This document shows, one piece after another, positions 2-55,377 of a DNA stretch of 64,000 bases. Both the position numbers and the translations under genes were made by a program. The DNA is from Vicinamibacteria bacterium (GTDB lineage Bacteria; Acidobacteriota; Vicinamibacteria; Marinacidobacterales; Marinacidobacteraceae), in NCBI GenBank assembly GCA_964291235.2, contig OZ219816.1, positions 1,024,001 through 1,088,000 on the forward strand, given 5' to 3'. The notes under the pieces were generated by a model, which saw only the letters and a program-made list of their open reading frames with translations, searched no databases and was not told the origin of the DNA. Within the stretch, counting starts at the first letter, position 1. Every line of letters begins with the position of its first letter.

Positions 2-1258
2 CCCTTCCGGAAGGGCGAGAATCCGCTCTCCGCCGCCCCGAATTTCGAGGACTACTACCTTGAGATGCAAAACCACGGTGACTACGACGACTACTTCCGG
101 GGCGTCGGCCGCAACTGGGCCGAGTACTACGAGCAGACATCGGACGTCCCGATGCTGCACGTCGGCGGCTGGTATGACTCCTATGCCCCCGGCACCATCC
201 AGAGCTTTCTCGAGCTGTCCCGCGTCAAGTCGTCTCCCATGATGCTCGTCATGGGGCCGTGGACGCACGGGGGAAACAACCGGTCCTACGCCGGGGACAT
301 CGAACTCGGAGAGGCGGCAGCCATCGAGGACTTCGCCCGGGAGTTCCATCTGCGCTGGTTCGATGCACGTTTGAAAGGCCAGGGCCCCTTCGCGCCCTTT
401 GCGGACGACCGTCTGGAAGCCGCGTCGCCGGGCCCGGTGACCCTGTTCGTCATGGGGGGAGGGGACGGCCGGCGCGATGAGAATGGCCGCCTGTTTCACG
501 GCGGCGCCTGGCGGACTGCAGCTACCTGGCCCCTCGAGGGAACCGAGATGACCCCCTTCCACCTGCGCGCGGGTGGCGGATTGACTCCCGGGTCGCCGGA
601 TGACAGCGAAGGGTCCTCGGCGTACACCTACGATCCGGAGCATCCGGTCCCCACGATCGGCGGGGCCTTCTCGGGCGCCCTCAAGCGGGGCGGCTACGAC
701 CAGCGGGAACGCACCTTCCACTCGCTCTCCGGCGGATCCGAGAACGGTTTCTTCGGTTCTGAAGTGGACGGCCGGCGGACTGCGGACCGCACCGACGTCC
801 TGGTCTTCGAGACCGAGCCGCTTGCGGAAGGGCTCGAAGTGGTTGGGCCGGTCTCGGCGCGTCTCTGGGTCTCGTCAAGCGCGCCGGATACGGATTTCAC
901 GGCCAAGCTGGTGGACGTCTATCCCCCGAGCGATGACTTTCCGGAGGGATTCGATCTGAACATCACCGACGGCATCCTGCGAGCCCGTTACCGGGACTCC
1001 CGGGAGGCGGAAACGCTGATGAATCCCGGTGAAATCTACGAACTGGAAATCACCCTCTTCCCCACCGCCAACCGGTTCCAGGCCGGCCACCGGATCCGCC
1101 TGGAGATCTCCAGCTCGAACTTCCCGCGGTTCGATCCCAACCCCAATACCGGCGAACCGCTTGGCCGCCACACCCGCGCGGTTCCGGCCGACAACGTGAT
1201 CCACCACTCGGCGGAGCACCCCTCGGCGCTCGTGCTTCCGGTACAGCCCGCGCGGTAG
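2..1258 (+). CDS. CocE/NonD family hydrolase, 5'-truncated by window edge
   Basis: Frame open from position 2; motifs HVGGWYD, MGPWTHG, YDPEHPVPTIGG, DTDFTAKLVDVYP, GHRIRLEISSSNFPRFDPN. Confidence 0.9.
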   Translation, partial: PFRKGENPLSAAPNFEDYYLEMQNHGDYDDYFRGVGRNWAEYYEQTSDVPMLHVGGWYDSYAPGTIQSFLELSRVKSSPMMLVMGPWTHGGNNRSYAGDIELGEAAAIEDFAREFHLRWFDARLKGQGPFAPFADDRLEAASPGPVTLFVMGGGDGRRDENGRLFHGGAWRTAATWPLEGTEMTPFHLRAGGGLTPGSPDDSEGSSAYTYDPEHPVPTIGGAFSGALKRGGYDQRERTFHSLSGGSENGFFGSEVDGRRTADRTDVLVFETEPLAEGLEVVGPVSARLWVSSSAPDTDFTAKLVDVYPPSDDFPEGFDLNITDGILRARYRDSREAETLMNPGEIYELEITLFPTANRFQAGHRIRLEISSSNFPRFDPNPNTGEPLGRHTRAVPADNVIHHSAEHPSALVLPVQPAR

Positions 1259-49619: not shown

Positions 49620-52211
49620 ATGCACCTGCGTCCCAGCCTCGTCCTCGTCCTGTTGGCCACCCCGCTCTTCGCCGGGCCCCAGCGCTGGCCGCCGCCGCCC
49701 ATCATCCAGGGAGTGGCGGAGGCGTATCCGCCCGCCCGTCACGGTGGGAACTACATGCACAACTACTACTTCCCGCCGGCCCCGAGCAGCACTCCGTGGG
49801 CGCCGGCCTGGTCACCGGACGGGAAATCGATCGCGGTGGCGATGTCGGGCTCGATCTGGCGGGTGGACCCCGAAACCGGGATCGCTGACGAGCTGACCTC
49901 CGGGCCCGGCTACCACTCGCTACCCACCTGGTCGCCGGACGGGAGGTTCATCGTTTTCACGGTGGACCGGAACGGCCAGAACATCGGTCTTGCGCTCGTG
50001 GATCTGACGACGGGGGAGAGCCGGATGCTGACGGACGACGACTTCCTCTACATGGACCCGGCCTTCTCCCCGGACGGGAACCGGCTCGCCTACGTCTCCA
50101 CGAAGCCGTCGGGCTACTTCAATGTCTATGTCCGCGAGTTCGAGAACGGGGAGCTCGGGTCGGAAGAGATCGCCCTCACCCGGGACGAGAACTACGGGAA
50201 AGAGCGGCTCTACTTCGGCTCCTGGGACATGCACATCACCCCGGCCTGGATGCCGGACTCCCGGGAACTCCTGATGGTTTCGAACCACGAGGTGCCGCTC
50301 GGCTCGGGGAACGTGGTCCGGACTCCGATGGCGGTGGACGGCTTCGAGGAGGGGGTCGCCGTCCTCGCCGAACAATCCCTGTACCGGACCCGTCCGGACG
50401 TCTCGATCGACGGGAAGCGGTTCATCTATTCCTCGACGGCGGGCGCGGCGGATCAGTTCTCGAACCTCTACGTGCAGCCGACCGACGGCGGATCCCCCTA
50501 CAAGCTGACCTTTTTCGAGCACGACGCCTTCCACCCCCGCTGGTCCCCGGACGGCGAGTGGATCGCCTACATCGACAATTCCGGCGGACTGCCGCAGCTC
50601 GCTCTCCTGGAAACCTACGGGGGGAAGCGCCGCGTTCTCGAGATCACCCGGCGTAACTGGAGCCGGCCCATGGGGGTGCTCTCGGTGCGCACGGTGGACG
50701 CCGCGACGGATGAGGAGGTTGCCGCCCGCATCCACCTTGAGGCTGCCGACGGGCGTTTCTACGCGCCGCCGGATGCCTACGCCCGGATCGGCGGCGCGGC
50801 GGAACACTCGTTCCACCAGGCGGGGAGTTTCCGGATGGAGGTTCCCGTCGGTGCGCTCGAGATCGAGGCGGTGCGGGGCTTCGAGTACGAGCCGATGAGT
50901 GTACGGGTGGAAATCACGGCCGGTGATGTCACCGAGTTGACCCTCCGCCTCCCGCGGATCACGGACATGGCAGCGAAGGGGTGGTGGAGCGGTTCCACCC
51001 ACGTCCACATGAACTACGCCGGAAATCTCCACAACACGCTCGAAAACCTGATGTTCATGTCGGACGCCGAGGATCAGGACGTGGTGCTGGAGCAGGTCGC
51101 CAACAAGGACAACCGCATTCTCGACTACCAGCACTTCCTTCCCGGCGGGGGCGCGCATCCGCTCTCCACGGCGGACCGGGTGCTGGTGGTGGGCCAGGAA
51201 TACCGGCCGCCCTTCTACGGCCACGTCTTCTACTTCGGCCTTGAAGAGCACCTGATCTCGCCCTACACCACCGGCTACGAGGGCACGGGAATCGAGAGTC
51301 TTTATCCGTCGAACACCGACATGTTCCGAAAGGCGAAGGCTCAGGGTGCGACGGTGGGTTACGTGCACGCCTTCTTCGGAGAAAACGATCCGCTGGTCGG
51401 CCCGGAGGGAAGTCCTGGCAGCCTCGGTGGCGCGAAGGGATACATGGTGGATGCGGCCCTCGGCACCACGGACGCGGTGGAGTGGTCCTCGGCGTCGCGG
51501 GCGGGGTTCTTCCCGTGGTACGCCACCATGAACAACGGTCTCCGGGTCACTGCCGTCGGCGGCGAGGACTCCATCAGCAACATGCAGCGGTCCAAGCTGG
51601 TCGGTTCGGTGCGCACCTACGTGCACACCGGAGAGCGCGGGCTGGATCTGGACGCCTTCCTCGAAGGCATCCGGGAGGGCAGGGCATTCGTGAGTTGCGG
51701 GCCGGTGCTCGATTTCCGGGTCAATGGACGGATACCGGGGGACGAGGTACAGCTCCCGGAGTCTGGAGGCGAGGTGGAGTGGAGCGCCTGGGTTCGCTCC
51801 TCGACCCCGCTCGAGCGGGCGTGGATCGTTTCCGGCGGCGAGGACGTAGCCGAGGTGGCGCTCTCCGAGGATCGGCGTTCGGCCCGCGCGACCGGTCGCG
51901 TCGCGATGGAGCGGAGCGGCTGGATGATTCTCCGGGCGGAGGGAGCGCCGGAGGCAGCCCGCCCGCTGGACTGCGGCTACGCCCAGGCGTTCACGAATCC
52001 GGTCTGGGTCATGGCCGGCGACCAGCCGGTCCGCAGCGCCGCTGCCGCCGACTACTCGATTCGCTGGATCGACCGGCTCCGTGAGATGGCGGAAGCGTGG
52101 GAATACTGGCGGTCGGATGCCGAAAAGGCCCACGTGTATGCCCAGTTCGACGAGGCTCGGGCGGTCTACGAGGGGTTTCTCGTTGAGGCGCGCGCCCTGG
52201 GCCGAGAATGA
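49620..52211 (+). CDS. Exported protein: TolB-like PD40 repeats plus CehA/McbA (PHP-like) metallohydrolase domain
   Basis: PAWSPDG, PTWSPDG, PAFSPDG, PRWSPDG; WWSGSTHVH, GQEYR, GHV, YVH, GGED, AFTNPVW. Confidence 0.85.
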   Translation: MHLRPSLVLVLLATPLFAGPQRWPPPPIIQGVAEAYPPARHGGNYMHNYYFPPAPSSTPWAPAWSPDGKSIAVAMSGSIWRVDPETGIADELTSGPGYHSLPTWSPDGRFIVFTVDRNGQNIGLALVDLTTGESRMLTDDDFLYMDPAFSPDGNRLAYVSTKPSGYFNVYVREFENGELGSEEIALTRDENYGKERLYFGSWDMHITPAWMPDSRELLMVSNHEVPLGSGNVVRTPMAVDGFEEGVAVLAEQSLYRTRPDVSIDGKRFIYSSTAGAADQFSNLYVQPTDGGSPYKLTFFEHDAFHPRWSPDGEWIAYIDNSGGLPQLALLETYGGKRRVLEITRRNWSRPMGVLSVRTVDAATDEEVAARIHLEAADGRFYAPPDAYARIGGAAEHSFHQAGSFRMEVPVGALEIEAVRGFEYEPMSVRVEITAGDVTELTLRLPRITDMAAKGWWSGSTHVHMNYAGNLHNTLENLMFMSDAEDQDVVLEQVANKDNRILDYQHFLPGGGAHPLSTADRVLVVGQEYRPPFYGHVFYFGLEEHLISPYTTGYEGTGIESLYPSNTDMFRKAKAQGATVGYVHAFFGENDPLVGPEGSPGSLGGAKGYMVDAALGTTDAVEWSSASRAGFFPWYATMNNGLRVTAVGGEDSISNMQRSKLVGSVRTYVHTGERGLDLDAFLEGIREGRAFVSCGPVLDFRVNGRIPGDEVQLPESGGEVEWSAWVRSSTPLERAWIVSGGEDVAEVALSEDRRSARATGRVAMERSGWMILRAEGAPEAARPLDCGYAQAFTNPVWVMAGDQPVRSAAAADYSIRWIDRLREMAEAWEYWRSDAEKAHVYAQFDEARAVYEGFLVEARALGRE

Positions 52212-52284
52212 GAAACCCGGTGACCAGCGGAATGGGCCGAGCCGCGTGGCCGGGTTCCGGCCGTCTGCCTGATACCCTCGGGCC

Positions 52285-52626
52285 ATGAGCCTGATGGGAC
52301 GGGCCCTCGGGACGAAGGCCCCGTTCGTTCCGCCGAATCAGATCGACGATGTGCTGCGCGACGACGAGGTACTTCTGCTGGATGTGCGGACCGCCGTGGA
52401 GCTGGCCGAATCGGGGACCATCCCGGGGGCGCTCCACATCCATCTCGGAGAACTCGCCGACCGGCTCGACGAGTTGCCCCGCGGCCAGCCGGTGCTGACC
52501 ACCTGAATGGTGGGCCCCCGGGCTGCGCGTGCCGCGGCCATTCTGGAGAAGGCAGGTTTCGAAGTCGTGGGTTATTGCGGCCTCAAGCAATACGCGGGCG
52601 CCCGGGAGTACCGCCCGCTCAACTGA
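52285..52626 (+). CDS. Selenocysteine-containing rhodanese-domain protein (113 aa, Sec74)
   Basis: LLDVRT..E...GTIPGALHI; in-frame TGA 52504-52506 gives U-MVGPR-AARAAAILEKAGFEVVGYCGL at the catalytic CxxGxR loop; SECIS-like hairpin follows. Confidence 0.85.
52521..52539 (+). promoter_or_regulatory. Putative bacterial SECIS hairpin
   Basis: GGCTGCG-CGTGC-CGCGGCC; loop starts 22 nt after the TGA with G at loop position 2. Confidence 0.7.
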
Positions 52627-52647
52627 TTCCCAATAGGAGGGTCCACG

Positions 52648-53100
52648 ATGAAGAGGACTTTTTCCCTCGCCGCGGCTGCCCTGACGGCGCTCGGTTGGGG
52701 CTGTGGCGGAGGCGAGCCGGCGGCTGAAATGCCCGCGGCCACCGAAGAGGCCACGCCGGAGCCGACGCCGGAGCCGACGCCGGAGCCAGCGCCGCGAGTC
52801 GAGGCCGAGGACATTGACGCCGCTCTCGCGAACGGCGCCGTTCTCCTCGATGTGCGCACCGATGAAGAACTCGCCGAGCACGGCACCATCGAGGGCTTCG
52901 TCCACATTCCGATCGATGAACTGGAGGCGAGGATCGGCGAACTCCCGGTGGGAGTTCCCATCCTCACCGCTTGACAGGGTGGCGGAAGAGCCGCGCGTGC
53001 CGCGGAGCTACTACAGGCGAACGGACACGAAGTCGTTGGTTTTTGTGGCCTGATGGGCTATGAAGGCGAGCGGGTCTATCCCGGGGCAGCGGAAGACTGA
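52648..53100 (+). CDS. Selenocysteine-containing rhodanese-domain lipoprotein (150 aa, Sec109)
   Basis: AGGAGG SD; signal peptide ending LGWG-C; EPTP linker; LLDVRT..E..HGTIEG; TGA 52972-52974 gives U-QGGGR-AARAAELLQANGHEVVGFCGL. Confidence 0.85.
52989..53009 (+). promoter_or_regulatory. Putative bacterial SECIS hairpin
   Basis: CCGCG-CGTGC-CGCGG core; same loop and same spacing from the TGA as in the first rhodanese. Confidence 0.7.
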
Positions 53101-53104
53101 TTCG

Positions 53105-54403
53105 TCAGATCTGAACCGTCCGGAAGCCCGCCAACACGTCGCGGCGATCCGGACTGAAGAAATTTCGATAGCGGCCGGTCAGCAGCCGGCCGCGCGTCGC
53201 CCAGGCGCCGCCGCGCAGCACCTTGGTCTCGTGGAAACCGGCTTCGGAGTATTCCCGGTAGGCATCGGGACGGAAACCGGGGAACGGCCTGAAGGTGTCC
53301 CCGGTCCACTCCCAGACATTGCCAATCATCTGCCGGCAGCCGAAGGCGCTGTCCCCTTCGGGCAGCGCTCCCACGTCGAGGCAGCCCAGCGCCCAACCGT
53401 CCAGGTTCGCCCGCCGAGGGTCGGGAGGCGTTTCTCCCCATGGGTACGACCGCTTCTTCGGGGCGAGGGCGTCCCCGGCGGGTTCGCCGAGGGCGGCCGT
53501 TTCCCACTCGGCTTCCGAAGGGAGCCGCCGGCCGGCCCAGGCACAGTAGGCATTTGCCTCGAACCAGTTCACGTGGATGACGGGTTCGTCGGGCGCCAGC
53601 GGGCGGACCCGGTCGAAACGGCGTACCCGGAACCCGCCTTCCCGGTCGGGGCGCCAATAGACAGGATGCGCGGCGTCGGCTCGTTCCCGCCAATTCCAGC
53701 CCGCCCGGCTCCAGAACTCACGCTCGCGGTAGCCTCCGGCTGTCACGAATTCGGCGAACTCCGCGTTCGTGACCGGGGCTTTCGCGATCGCAAACGACTG
53801 GACGCGGAACGGATGCGCCCACTTCTCGTTGTCGTAGAGGAACGGTGCGTCCGGCTCAGCCCCCAGCCGAAACGTCCCGCCGGGAACGCGGGCGTCCCCC
53901 GGATGGCGGCCGCCCGGCGCTCGCCGGGGGCGCTCCCGTCCCAGAGCCGGGGCCGGGTAGCCGAGGGTCTGCCGGGAGTAGATGTACGCCTCGGTGTGCA
54001 TGTCCTCGTGGAAGGTGGCGAACTGGTACATGAAGCTGTCGCTCTCGGTCGCGAGGTTCTGATCCAACCGGTCGAGGCAGCGGCACTTGACCCTTTCGGC
54101 GTAGCCGATCACTTCCTCCATGCCGAGGAGAGGGAGGTCCCAGCGCAGTTCCTGGGCAACGGTCGCCGAGTCATAGATTTCGTCCCCCCTGGGCAGGATC
54201 GCTTCGCACCCGTGGAGTTCGCGCAGGATGAACCTCTCGTAGAACCACGCGACGTGCCCGATTTCCCAGCGCAGCGGGTTGACGATGCGCAGCCGCGACC
54301 CCATCCACTGGTCCTCGTCGAGCCCGACAATCAGTGCGAGACTGCGCCGGTGGGCATCTTCCATGATGGCGGCCAGGTGGTCGGCCGGGACACGCTTGGT
54401 CAT
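53105..54403 (-). CDS. senA: Selenoneine synthase (EgtB-like, DinB plus FGE-sulfatase domains)
   Basis: NPLRWEIGHVAWF, FHEDMHTEA metal motif, RRLPSEAEWE, GNVWEW, YRNFF..RRDVLAGFRT; adjacent to senB. Confidence 0.85.
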   Translation of the reverse strand: MTKRVPADHLAAIMEDAHRRSLALIVGLDEDQWMGSRLRIVNPLRWEIGHVAWFYERFILRELHGCEAILPRGDEIYDSATVAQELRWDLPLLGMEEVIGYAERVKCRCLDRLDQNLATESDSFMYQFATFHEDMHTEAYIYSRQTLGYPAPALGRERPRRAPGGRHPGDARVPGGTFRLGAEPDAPFLYDNEKWAHPFRVQSFAIAKAPVTNAEFAEFVTAGGYREREFWSRAGWNWRERADAAHPVYWRPDREGGFRVRRFDRVRPLAPDEPVIHVNWFEANAYCAWAGRRLPSEAEWETAALGEPAGDALAPKKRSYPWGETPPDPRRANLDGWALGCLDVGALPEGDSAFGCRQMIGNVWEWTGDTFRPFPGFRPDAYREYSEAGFHETKVLRGGAWATRGRLLTGRYRNFFSPDRRDVLAGFRTVQI

Positions 54404-54423: not shown

Positions 54424-55377
54424 GTGCGAATCATTGTAGTAACCCCCGCCGGAGCCAACTCGCGCGCCGGAAACCGGATCACCGCGGTCCGCTGGGCGCG
54501 GATGCTGCGGTCGCTGGGGCACCGAGTCGCCGTCCGGACGGAATGGGACGGCGGGAGCGCGGATGTGCTGATCGCGCTCCACGCCTGGCGGAGCGCTGCT
54601 TCCGTTGCCCGCTACCGATCCCGTTGCCCGAACGGTTCCCTGGTGGTCGCGTTGACCGGCACCGATGTGCACGGCTTTCTCGGCACCCATGAAGAGACGA
54701 CCCGGAGGTCGCTTGAACACGCGGACGTGCTGGTGGCGCTGCACGATCTGGTGTCCGATGCCATCCCACCGGAGTTTCGCAACAAGGTCCAGGTGGTGCA
54801 TCAGTCGGTGAAGAACCGCGGTATATCGCGCGATCCGTCGAGACGCACGTTTGACGTGTGCGTCGTCGGACACCTGCGCCGGGAAAAGGATCCGCTGCGG
54901 GCGGCGTACGCGGCGCGAGCGATCCCGGCGGCGTCCCGGTTGCGCGTTTTGCACGCCGGTGGAGCTCGGGATCCGGATTGGGGGGTCGCTGCGCAGGAGG
55001 AGATGGCGCGAAACCCGCGTTACCGCTGGCGCGGTGAACTTCCGGGGTGGCGCGTGCGCCGGCTCTACGCGAAAGCCCGGGCGATGGTGATCTCTTCGGT
55101 CGTGGAGGGGGGCGCCAATGTGGTGTCCGAGGCGGTGGTGGCCGGACTCCCGGTCATTGCGTCGCGCATCCCGGGGAACGTCGGCCTTCTCGGCCCCGGA
55201 CACCCGGGCTATTTCCCCCCGCAGGATACCGGGGCTCTCCGCGATCTCCTGTGGTGCGCGGAGAGTGATCCCGGTTTCCTCGAGGACCTCATGCGGCACG
55301 GGGCGGCGCGAGCGCCGCTGTTCGCCCCCGAGCGTGAACGCGAGGCCTGGCGCCGGCTACTCGCGGCGCTCTCGTAG
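54424..55377 (+). CDS. senB: Selenosugar synthase (TIGR04348-type glycosyltransferase)
   Basis: IVVTPA....AGNRITAVRWA, IALHAWRS, LTGTD, VVGHLRREKDP, EGGANVVSEA, IPGNVGLLG..HPGYF. Confidence 0.9.
   Translation: MRIIVVTPAGANSRAGNRITAVRWARMLRSLGHRVAVRTEWDGGSADVLIALHAWRSAASVARYRSRCPNGSLVVALTGTDVHGFLGTHEETTRRSLEHADVLVALHDLVSDAIPPEFRNKVQVVHQSVKNRGISRDPSRRTFDVCVVGHLRREKDPLRAAYAARAIPAASRLRVLHAGGARDPDWGVAAQEEMARNPRYRWRGELPGWRVRRLYAKARAMVISSVVEGGANVVSEAVVAGLPVIASRIPGNVGLLGPGHPGYFPPQDTGALRDLLWCAESDPGFLEDLMRHGAARAPLFAPEREREAWRRLLAALS

Follow-up and report, generated by a model that had tools for sequence, protein, structure and literature searches.

On the evidence of sequence, two neighbouring genes of a Vicinamibacteria bacterium, here called gene A and gene B, are a real, conserved and mis-annotated pair of selenocysteine (Sec) rhodaneses, belonging to a selenoprotein type that is already known. 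Both genes lie in the window, i.e., the whole stretch of 64,000 nt that was analysed (contig OZ219816.1), and each is interrupted by an in-frame TGA. We put the probability that both UGA codons are decoded as Sec at about 0.88. This had been proposed by a sequence-only reading of the window, and the proposal is upheld by the conservation of the TGA, the constraint on the sequence downstream of it and the presence of the Sec machinery in the genome. Each product would be a single-domain rhodanese sulfurtransferase in which Sec replaces the catalytic Cys of the C-x-x-G-x-R motif.

Genes A and B are neighbours in the same orientation. Under translation table 11 they appear as ORFs of 73 aa (52285-52506) and 108 aa (52648-52974), both ended by TGA, which reproduces the fragments that the sequence-only reading had expected of standard annotation. 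When the TGA is read through, sequence and frame give gene A (52285-52626, plus strand; alternative start ATG at 52294, plus strand) as a single-domain rhodanese of 113 aa, predicted to be cytoplasmic, with Sec at residue 74 and the next stop, TGA, at 52624-52626. Its in-frame UGA (52504-52506, plus strand) opens the active-site loop U-M-V-G-P-R and is followed by 39 residues. Gene B (52648-53100, plus strand), read in the same way, encodes a rhodanese of 150 aa, probably exported, with Sec at residue 109 and the next stop, TGA, at 53098-53100; its UGA (52972-52974, plus strand) opens the loop U-Q-G-G-G-R and is followed by 41 residues. A Shine-Dalgarno-like AGGAGG can be read directly at 52635-52640 (plus strand), 7 nt ahead of the gene B start. 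This site, the ATG at 52648 and the stop at 52626 match those given earlier, and the peptides quoted around the two TGA codons, PVLTT-U-MVGPRAARAAAILEKAGFEVVGYCGL and PILTA-U-QGGGRAARAAELLQANGHEVVGFCGL, are exact in the sequence. Furthermore, the similarity of the two paralogs does run past the TGA, as had been claimed: the two proteins share 55% identity over 95 residues in an alignment that spans it.

The Pfam Rhodanese domain (PF00581, cut-off 22.2 bits) spans the TGA in both read-through products, covering residues 18-94 of protein A (E 8.4e-12, 45.9 bits) and residues 53-129 of protein B (E 1e-10, 42.4 bits). An active-site loop of six residues is the mark of sulfurtransferases. Both genes have the six-residue form C-x-x-G-x-R with U in place of Cys, in agreement with the earlier statement that a UxxGxR loop completes the fold. 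In the family profile, U falls on Cys531, the catalytic residue of the rhodanese domain in Shewanella Npsr (E 1.8e-19); PDB entries titled C531S carry a mutation of this residue. For the domain of B only, an AlphaFold model built on an 84-sequence alignment had a pLDDT of 86.5 and a pTM of 0.79. Foldseek returned 34 PDB matches to this model at E <= 0.001, and those listed were rhodanese domains; the best fold matches were CoADR-RHD (TM 0.74, 40% identity), the PRF persulfide dioxygenase-rhodanese fusion and Npsr, with TM scores of about 0.74. B-type proteins have a second Cys 24 residues past U, in the motif GFCGL; Ser stands there in most A-type proteins.

The TGA at the catalytic-Cys column, seen at first in the two paralogs of the window, is kept at the same column in 20/20 fetched related loci. 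Across 61 related genomes (a number that takes in G036, which has weak matches only), all 78 matches with E <= 2.9e-23 carry exactly one TGA; the next-best match has an E value of 6.5e-11 and is without TGA. Both A and B were present, with U at the same column, in each of the 20 fetched loci, and the true stop codons of these orthologs vary among TGA, TAA and TAG. Since A and B with U were found in 20/20 loci and one TGA in 78/78 matches, the pair must be more than chance. U also occupies this column at 20 homolog loci that belong to two further families in the order. In a phylum sample of 401 genomes, a number that includes one unpublished genome (G107), 34 matches at E <= 1e-15 were found in 32 genomes, and 34/34 had exactly one TGA. 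When the loci of the sample were fetched, with the own genome and G107 left out, U was at the catalytic column in 31/31. The family is thus present in 31 of the 400 other genomes of the phylum sample (approximately 8%). Altogether, U stands at the same column in 91/91 genes examined, 71 of which are distinct over a 51-nt window. The sequence-only reading had named TAA, TAG or a frameshift at this column as evidence against Sec; none occurs in the 91 genes.

An alternation of Cys and TGA at the column had also been suggested as a check on Sec. It was borne out in part: distant homologs and solved rhodaneses have Cys there, but the close homologs have TGA only, and no Cys form was found among close homologs in the 61 related genomes or in the 401-genome phylum sample. 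P0076, a distant homolog of 45% identity, has Cys at the U column and shares the C-terminal GYCGL motif, and P0063 (51% identity) has Gly at the U column. Since the close homologs are without a Cys form, the Cys/Sec alternation is visible only at 51% identity or less.

A loss of conservation past the TGA would likewise have spoken against Sec in the sequence-only reading; instead, most of the downstream residues are at least 90% conserved. The invariant columns of the 84-sequence alignment include U59, G62, R64, A68, A69 and G76, and the U, G and R of the catalytic loop are invariant across all 84 sequences. Over codons +12 to +35, synonymous sites differed between pairs of sequences by a mean of 0.39 in A, 0.33 in B and 0.35 in the copies of the other families. 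Amino acids are therefore constrained and synonymous sites drift past the TGA, which indicates that the downstream part is translated, and the aligned codons indicate that the protein sequence past the TGA is under purifying selection.

The genome has what Sec insertion would need. A missing selB or selC had been named as evidence against Sec, but selA (498.1 bits, cut-off 268), selB (311 bits summed, cut-off 242), selD (249.5 bits, cut-off 125) and tRNA-Sec (selC; 69.7 bits, cut-off 47) are all present above their cut-offs. TGA ends 718 of 1231 long coding-like ORFs and is the commonest ordinary stop, ending A, B and senA as well; the genetic code is therefore standard and not reassigned. Moreover, selA was found in 30/31 other rhodanese-positive genomes of the phylum sample versus 299/400 overall (one-sided Fisher p 0.001, kinship ignored), and the single rhodanese-positive genome without selA is 69% complete.

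Three further candidate selenoprotein genes, in each of which a Pfam domain spans an in-frame TGA, were found in the own genome. They encode an exported AhpC/TSA-like protein with T-G-G-U (L096, 179-832, plus strand), a Thioredoxin_7 plus PDZ protein with C-S-P-U (L097, 112-1446, minus strand) and a MerB (alkylmercury lyase)-like protein (L098, about 45-1082, plus strand). The GC3-based genome scan for read-through TGAs missed both rhodanese genes, so its yield is a lower bound and not a selenoproteome. No formate dehydrogenase alpha subunit was found in the own genome by TIGR01591. The Sec machinery of this genome would therefore appear to serve small redox and sulfur-transfer proteins. Only one SelD scored above the cut-off (contig C1, locus L017, 220-2556, plus strand). 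It is a 778-aa fusion in which a Pyr_redox_2 domain (pyridine nucleotide-disulphide oxidoreductase) precedes the SelD (AIRS) domains, and it has Cys, not Sec, in the N-terminal glycine-rich motif.

A and B share a hairpin, GC(C/U)GCG-CGUGC-CGCGG(C/A), which begins 16 nt past the UGA and is a candidate SECIS element. In gene A the SECIS-like hairpin is GCUGCG-CGUGC-CGCGGC (52522-52538, plus strand) with one U-G wobble, and it forms in a 36-nt single-sequence fold. In gene B the hairpin CCGCG-CGUGC-CGCGG (52991-53005, plus strand) lies inside a 33-nt block that directly follows the UGA (52975-53007, plus strand) and is the same in 20/20 orthologs, synonymous sites included; the synonymous difference over codons +1 to +11 of gene B is 0.000, compared to 0.298 upstream and 0.332 downstream. 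RNAalifold, run unguided on 60 aligned 51-nt stretches (44 distinct), predicted pairs of positions 20-24 with 30-34. In the six-pair version 95.5% of the cells are paired, versus only 25-81% in slid controls. Two pairs are changed on both sides, C-G to U-A in L040 and G-C to A-U in L042, which 0/500 shuffles reach; this covariation rests on few events, and L084 breaks one pair. Any GCN-GCN-CGN-GCN-GCN-GC coding of Ala-Ala-Arg-Ala-Ala-Ala imposes four of the six stem pairs and leaves two free to vary. When the phylum loci were added, 57 of 71 distinct sequences retained C-G and G-C at these two third-codon pairs, and the variants were U-A, A-U, flipped C-G and G-C, and wobbles. One remote clade has another hairpin at nearly the same place (GGCGCG-N5-CGCGCY, 11 nt past the UGA), and a second has a GAGC(C)UCC...GGAGCUC stem there. 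The loop U is replaced by G in 7/20 gene A orthologs. No extra stability over shuffles was seen in 67-nt and 60-nt post-UGA folds (z +2.51 and -0.56), and the minimum-energy structures of these single-sequence folds use pairings other than the conserved hairpin. Rfam recognised no family in 52200-53200; at E <= 10 the only matches were three at chance level. Taken together, the hairpin provides modest evidence for a SECIS role.

Other readings of the UGA have to be weighed against Sec. Pseudogenes, or truly short proteins ending at the TGA as current annotation has it, would be in keeping with the public records, which give gene A as 70-73-aa proteins. However, the TGA and the downstream frame are conserved phylum-wide, the amino acids being constrained while synonymous sites drift; the Pfam domain and the fold require the downstream part; and the same feature occurs in two independent genes per genome. 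The conservation of the TGA and the constraint downstream of it effectively refute this reading, and its chance is negligible. It is also very improbable that the UGA yields an ordinary amino acid (Cys, Trp or Gly), through near-cognate decoding or through some local recoding signal, with no selenium involved. The modest strength of the hairpin evidence leaves such a read-through some room; nevertheless, a full Sec machinery is present and co-occurs with the gene (30/31 genomes), the column is that of the nucleophilic Cys of the fold, a typical place for Sec, and a plain Cys codon would suffice for an ordinary residue, yet TGA is kept in 91/91 genes.

Sec insertion competes with release factor 2. 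The UGA might thus be a regulated switch, by which low selenium would yield inactive fragments of 73 and 108 aa and selenium would yield the full-length Sec enzymes. This reading refines the Sec reading and does not exclude it. In its favour, UGA is the main ordinary stop of the genome (718/1231 long ORFs), and the absence of a Cys paralog among close homologs in 401 genomes means that the output would hinge on the selenium supply. Nevertheless, there is no sequence sign of a role for the fragments, which, judged by the model, would end short of the active-site loop, the last helix and the last strand, and we regard a switch as decidedly unlikely. In the preferred reading, SelB carrying Sec-tRNA(Sec) would decode the UGA with the short GC-rich hairpin 16 nt downstream, within the codons for G-R-A-A-R-A-A, as its guide, and translation would continue for 39 (A) or 41 (B) residues and finish the fold. 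Protein A would remain in the cytoplasm, and B would be exported, probably with a lipid anchor. If both work like the solved rhodanese domains nearest to them, Sec may bear sulfane sulfur (or selenium), in selenopersulfide or perselenide form, for transfer to an acceptor, a carriage chemistry that we infer from the fold.

The two proteins differ at their N-termini. Protein A has no signal peptide. Gene B is laid out as a signal peptide, a Pro/Glu/Ala-rich linker and the rhodanese domain; judged by eye, the N-terminus consists of MKR, a hydrophobic stretch and the atypical lipobox G-W-G-C ahead of the linker, and the lipoprotein-like signal peptide extends to the Cys19 codon (MKRTFSLAAAALTALGWG-C; 52648-52704, plus strand). 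B homologs, also by eye, have more distinct lipoboxes (L-F-A-C, L-L-A-C or I-A-C), and some have an Ala-x-Ala type signal instead. A is thus probably cytoplasmic and B probably exported, with a lipid anchor on B.

The sequence-only reading had singled out the tandem arrangement as the unusual part of the finding. That view did not hold, since the pair is not a local oddity: two side-by-side matches are present in 26/27 other genomes of the family (f1). The sole exception, G007, which is of the same genus, has no pair, and this genome is 89% complete with some bases left out. A tandem pair also occurs in G052, from another family, in the reversed order, with a 139-aa lipoprotein form followed by a 114-aa signal-less form, both with U. 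In a tree of 85 sequences and 94 columns, which is short and leaves many forks open, A and B each formed a clade (100/100 for both), and the two clades were not sisters. B groups with lipoprotein forms of a neighbouring family (98/90), and A is nested among lipoprotein forms of a distant family, f20 (99/99 and 97/88). Since A and B are separate, non-sister clades nested elsewhere, the pair is not a recent tandem duplication; the tree indicates two old lineages of one family.

The gene upstream of the pair (49620-52211, plus strand) encodes 863 aa with TolB-like PD40 repeats and a CehA/McbA-family metallohydrolase domain, and it is not kept beside the pair in the family's other genera. Two selenoneine genes lie directly downstream. 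senA, on the minus strand at 53105-54403 (475 bits, cut-off 420), runs towards gene B, 4 nt separating the two stop codons, and senB follows at 54424-55377 (plus strand; 399 bits, cut-off 300). The pair is beside senA in the own genome and in 14/15 others from its genus; outside the genus, 12/12 genomes of the family keep the pair and have no senA above the cut-off. The pair as part of a selenoneine (sen) cluster of senA, senB and senC was therefore rejected, the linkage to senA and senB being confined to the genus. Across the phylum sample, senB and the Sec-rhodanese occur together in 8 genomes versus about 2.4 expected (Fisher p 0.0012). When only the 299 selA-positive genomes were considered, the counts were 8/22/22/247, with approximately 3 expected (p 0.005, four families, kinship ignored). 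The two genes were adjacent in 0/8 of the genomes with both, and we take the co-occurrence as no more than a weak lead. Among 126 ORFs scanned around 11 homolog loci of other genera and families, no common neighbour gene was found. A promoter and terminator scan of 52100-53300 was empty but for one terminator-like site, at chance level, on the minus strand within gene B.

It is conceivable, if unlikely, that A and B form a two-compartment relay of selenium (or sulfane sulfur). Outside the membrane, B would trap reactive selenium or sulfur in perselenide or selenopersulfide form, and A would deliver it inside the cell to the oxidoreductase-SelD fusion for Sec synthesis and, in this genus, for the adjacent senA and senB. 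Such a relay is hinted at by the recurrence of an exported and a cytoplasmic member in the other family in reversed order, by the keeping together of two old separate lineages, and by the co-occurrence of Sec-rhodanese and senB above expectation. If it is true that the pair handles selenium, a poorly known step would be filled, namely the delivery of selenium to selenophosphate synthetase.

Among solved proteins, the rhodanese domains of Shewanella Npsr (3nta, 4ocg), Bacillus CoADR-RHD (3icr, 3ict) and the Burkholderia PRF fusion (5ve3) are the best matches in both sequence and fold. These three are C-terminal domains of large persulfide or CoA-persulfide enzymes and have Cys, whereas A and B are stand-alone and would have Sec. 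Escherichia coli GlpE (1gmx) and PspE (2jtq) and Wolinella Sud (1qxn), which were all matched, share fold and size with A and B; however, they have Cys instead of Sec, are distant (E 1e-7 to 1e-9) and do not come as a gene pair. GlpE is cytoplasmic, and E. coli PspE and Wolinella Sud are periplasmic. The family of these proteins is thus split into cytoplasmic and exported members, as A and B would be. NCBIfam NF041203 (rhodanese_LYCAU, 'form 3', with a CxU motif) illustrates that a rhodanese-fold (seleno)protein can be named by annotation pipelines. A and B are of the UxxG type, and membership in NF041203 was rejected, since A scored 19.9 bits against a cut-off of 115 and B had no match.

The statement of the sequence-only reading that Sec-rhodaneses are known from computational selenoproteome surveys was confirmed. 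Rhodanese-related sulfurtransferase selenoproteins were first counted in the Sargasso Sea and GOS surveys, as given in the accessible parts of these papers (PMC1088965, PMC2398784), and they were likewise counted in a 2022 review. A 2026 review, in the part of it that was available, lists five rhodanese-like selenoprotein forms and catalogues UxxG in two of them, 'form 2' and 'form 4' (PMC13188914). A and B have in common with these two forms PF00581, Sec at the catalytic position and UxxG (U-M-V-G, U-Q-G-G), and the known forms too come from computation only; the likeness is one of motif and domain. The accessible parts of the surveys and of the 2026 review mention no tandem of a cytoplasmic and a lipoprotein form, no phylum-wide absence of Cys and no senA/senB neighbourhood, and supplements and alignment figures may add members. 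Full-text literature searches gave no link of a Sec-rhodanese to selenoneine, and the sen-cluster preprint, in the accessible part of its text, cites rhodanese only for SelU; the 2026 review makes no such connection either.

The expectation that gene A is annotated as a fragment was correct for the public databases, in which the best 60 gene A matches are all of 70-73 aa and are named hypothetical or rhodanese-like. Dozens of these public entries would thus be the first two thirds of a selenoprotein. Since no Cys version occurs among close relatives, the organisms seem to depend on selenium for this enzyme; one of its members is probably exported.

RNA-library sets X7 to X10 contributed four short contigs over 52250-53150, of 208, 223 or 131 nt and 85-95% alike; at this likeness they come from relatives, and X7/X8 and X9/X10 seem to be duplicate filings of the same data. 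One 223-nt contig spans the gene B UGA, which is no proof of transcription since RNA libraries can contain DNA.

Two senB homologs of one genus, L094 (G066) and L095 (G189), carry a TGA in frame as their fourth codon (M-R-I-U-I-V-T-P); the SenB of the window has Ile at this position. The start could be further downstream, or the TGA could be a recoding event or an error.

A near-identical lipoprotein-type Sec-rhodanese gene was observed in up to seven copies per genome and across different genera (loci L047-L054, L056, L057, L059 and L060; G045 with seven copies, G030, G039, G042 and G043). In the two flanks scanned, it adjoins integrase (rve), resolvase and toxin-antitoxin-like genes, and this sequence context suggests that the multi-copy Sec-rhodanese is carried on a mobile element.
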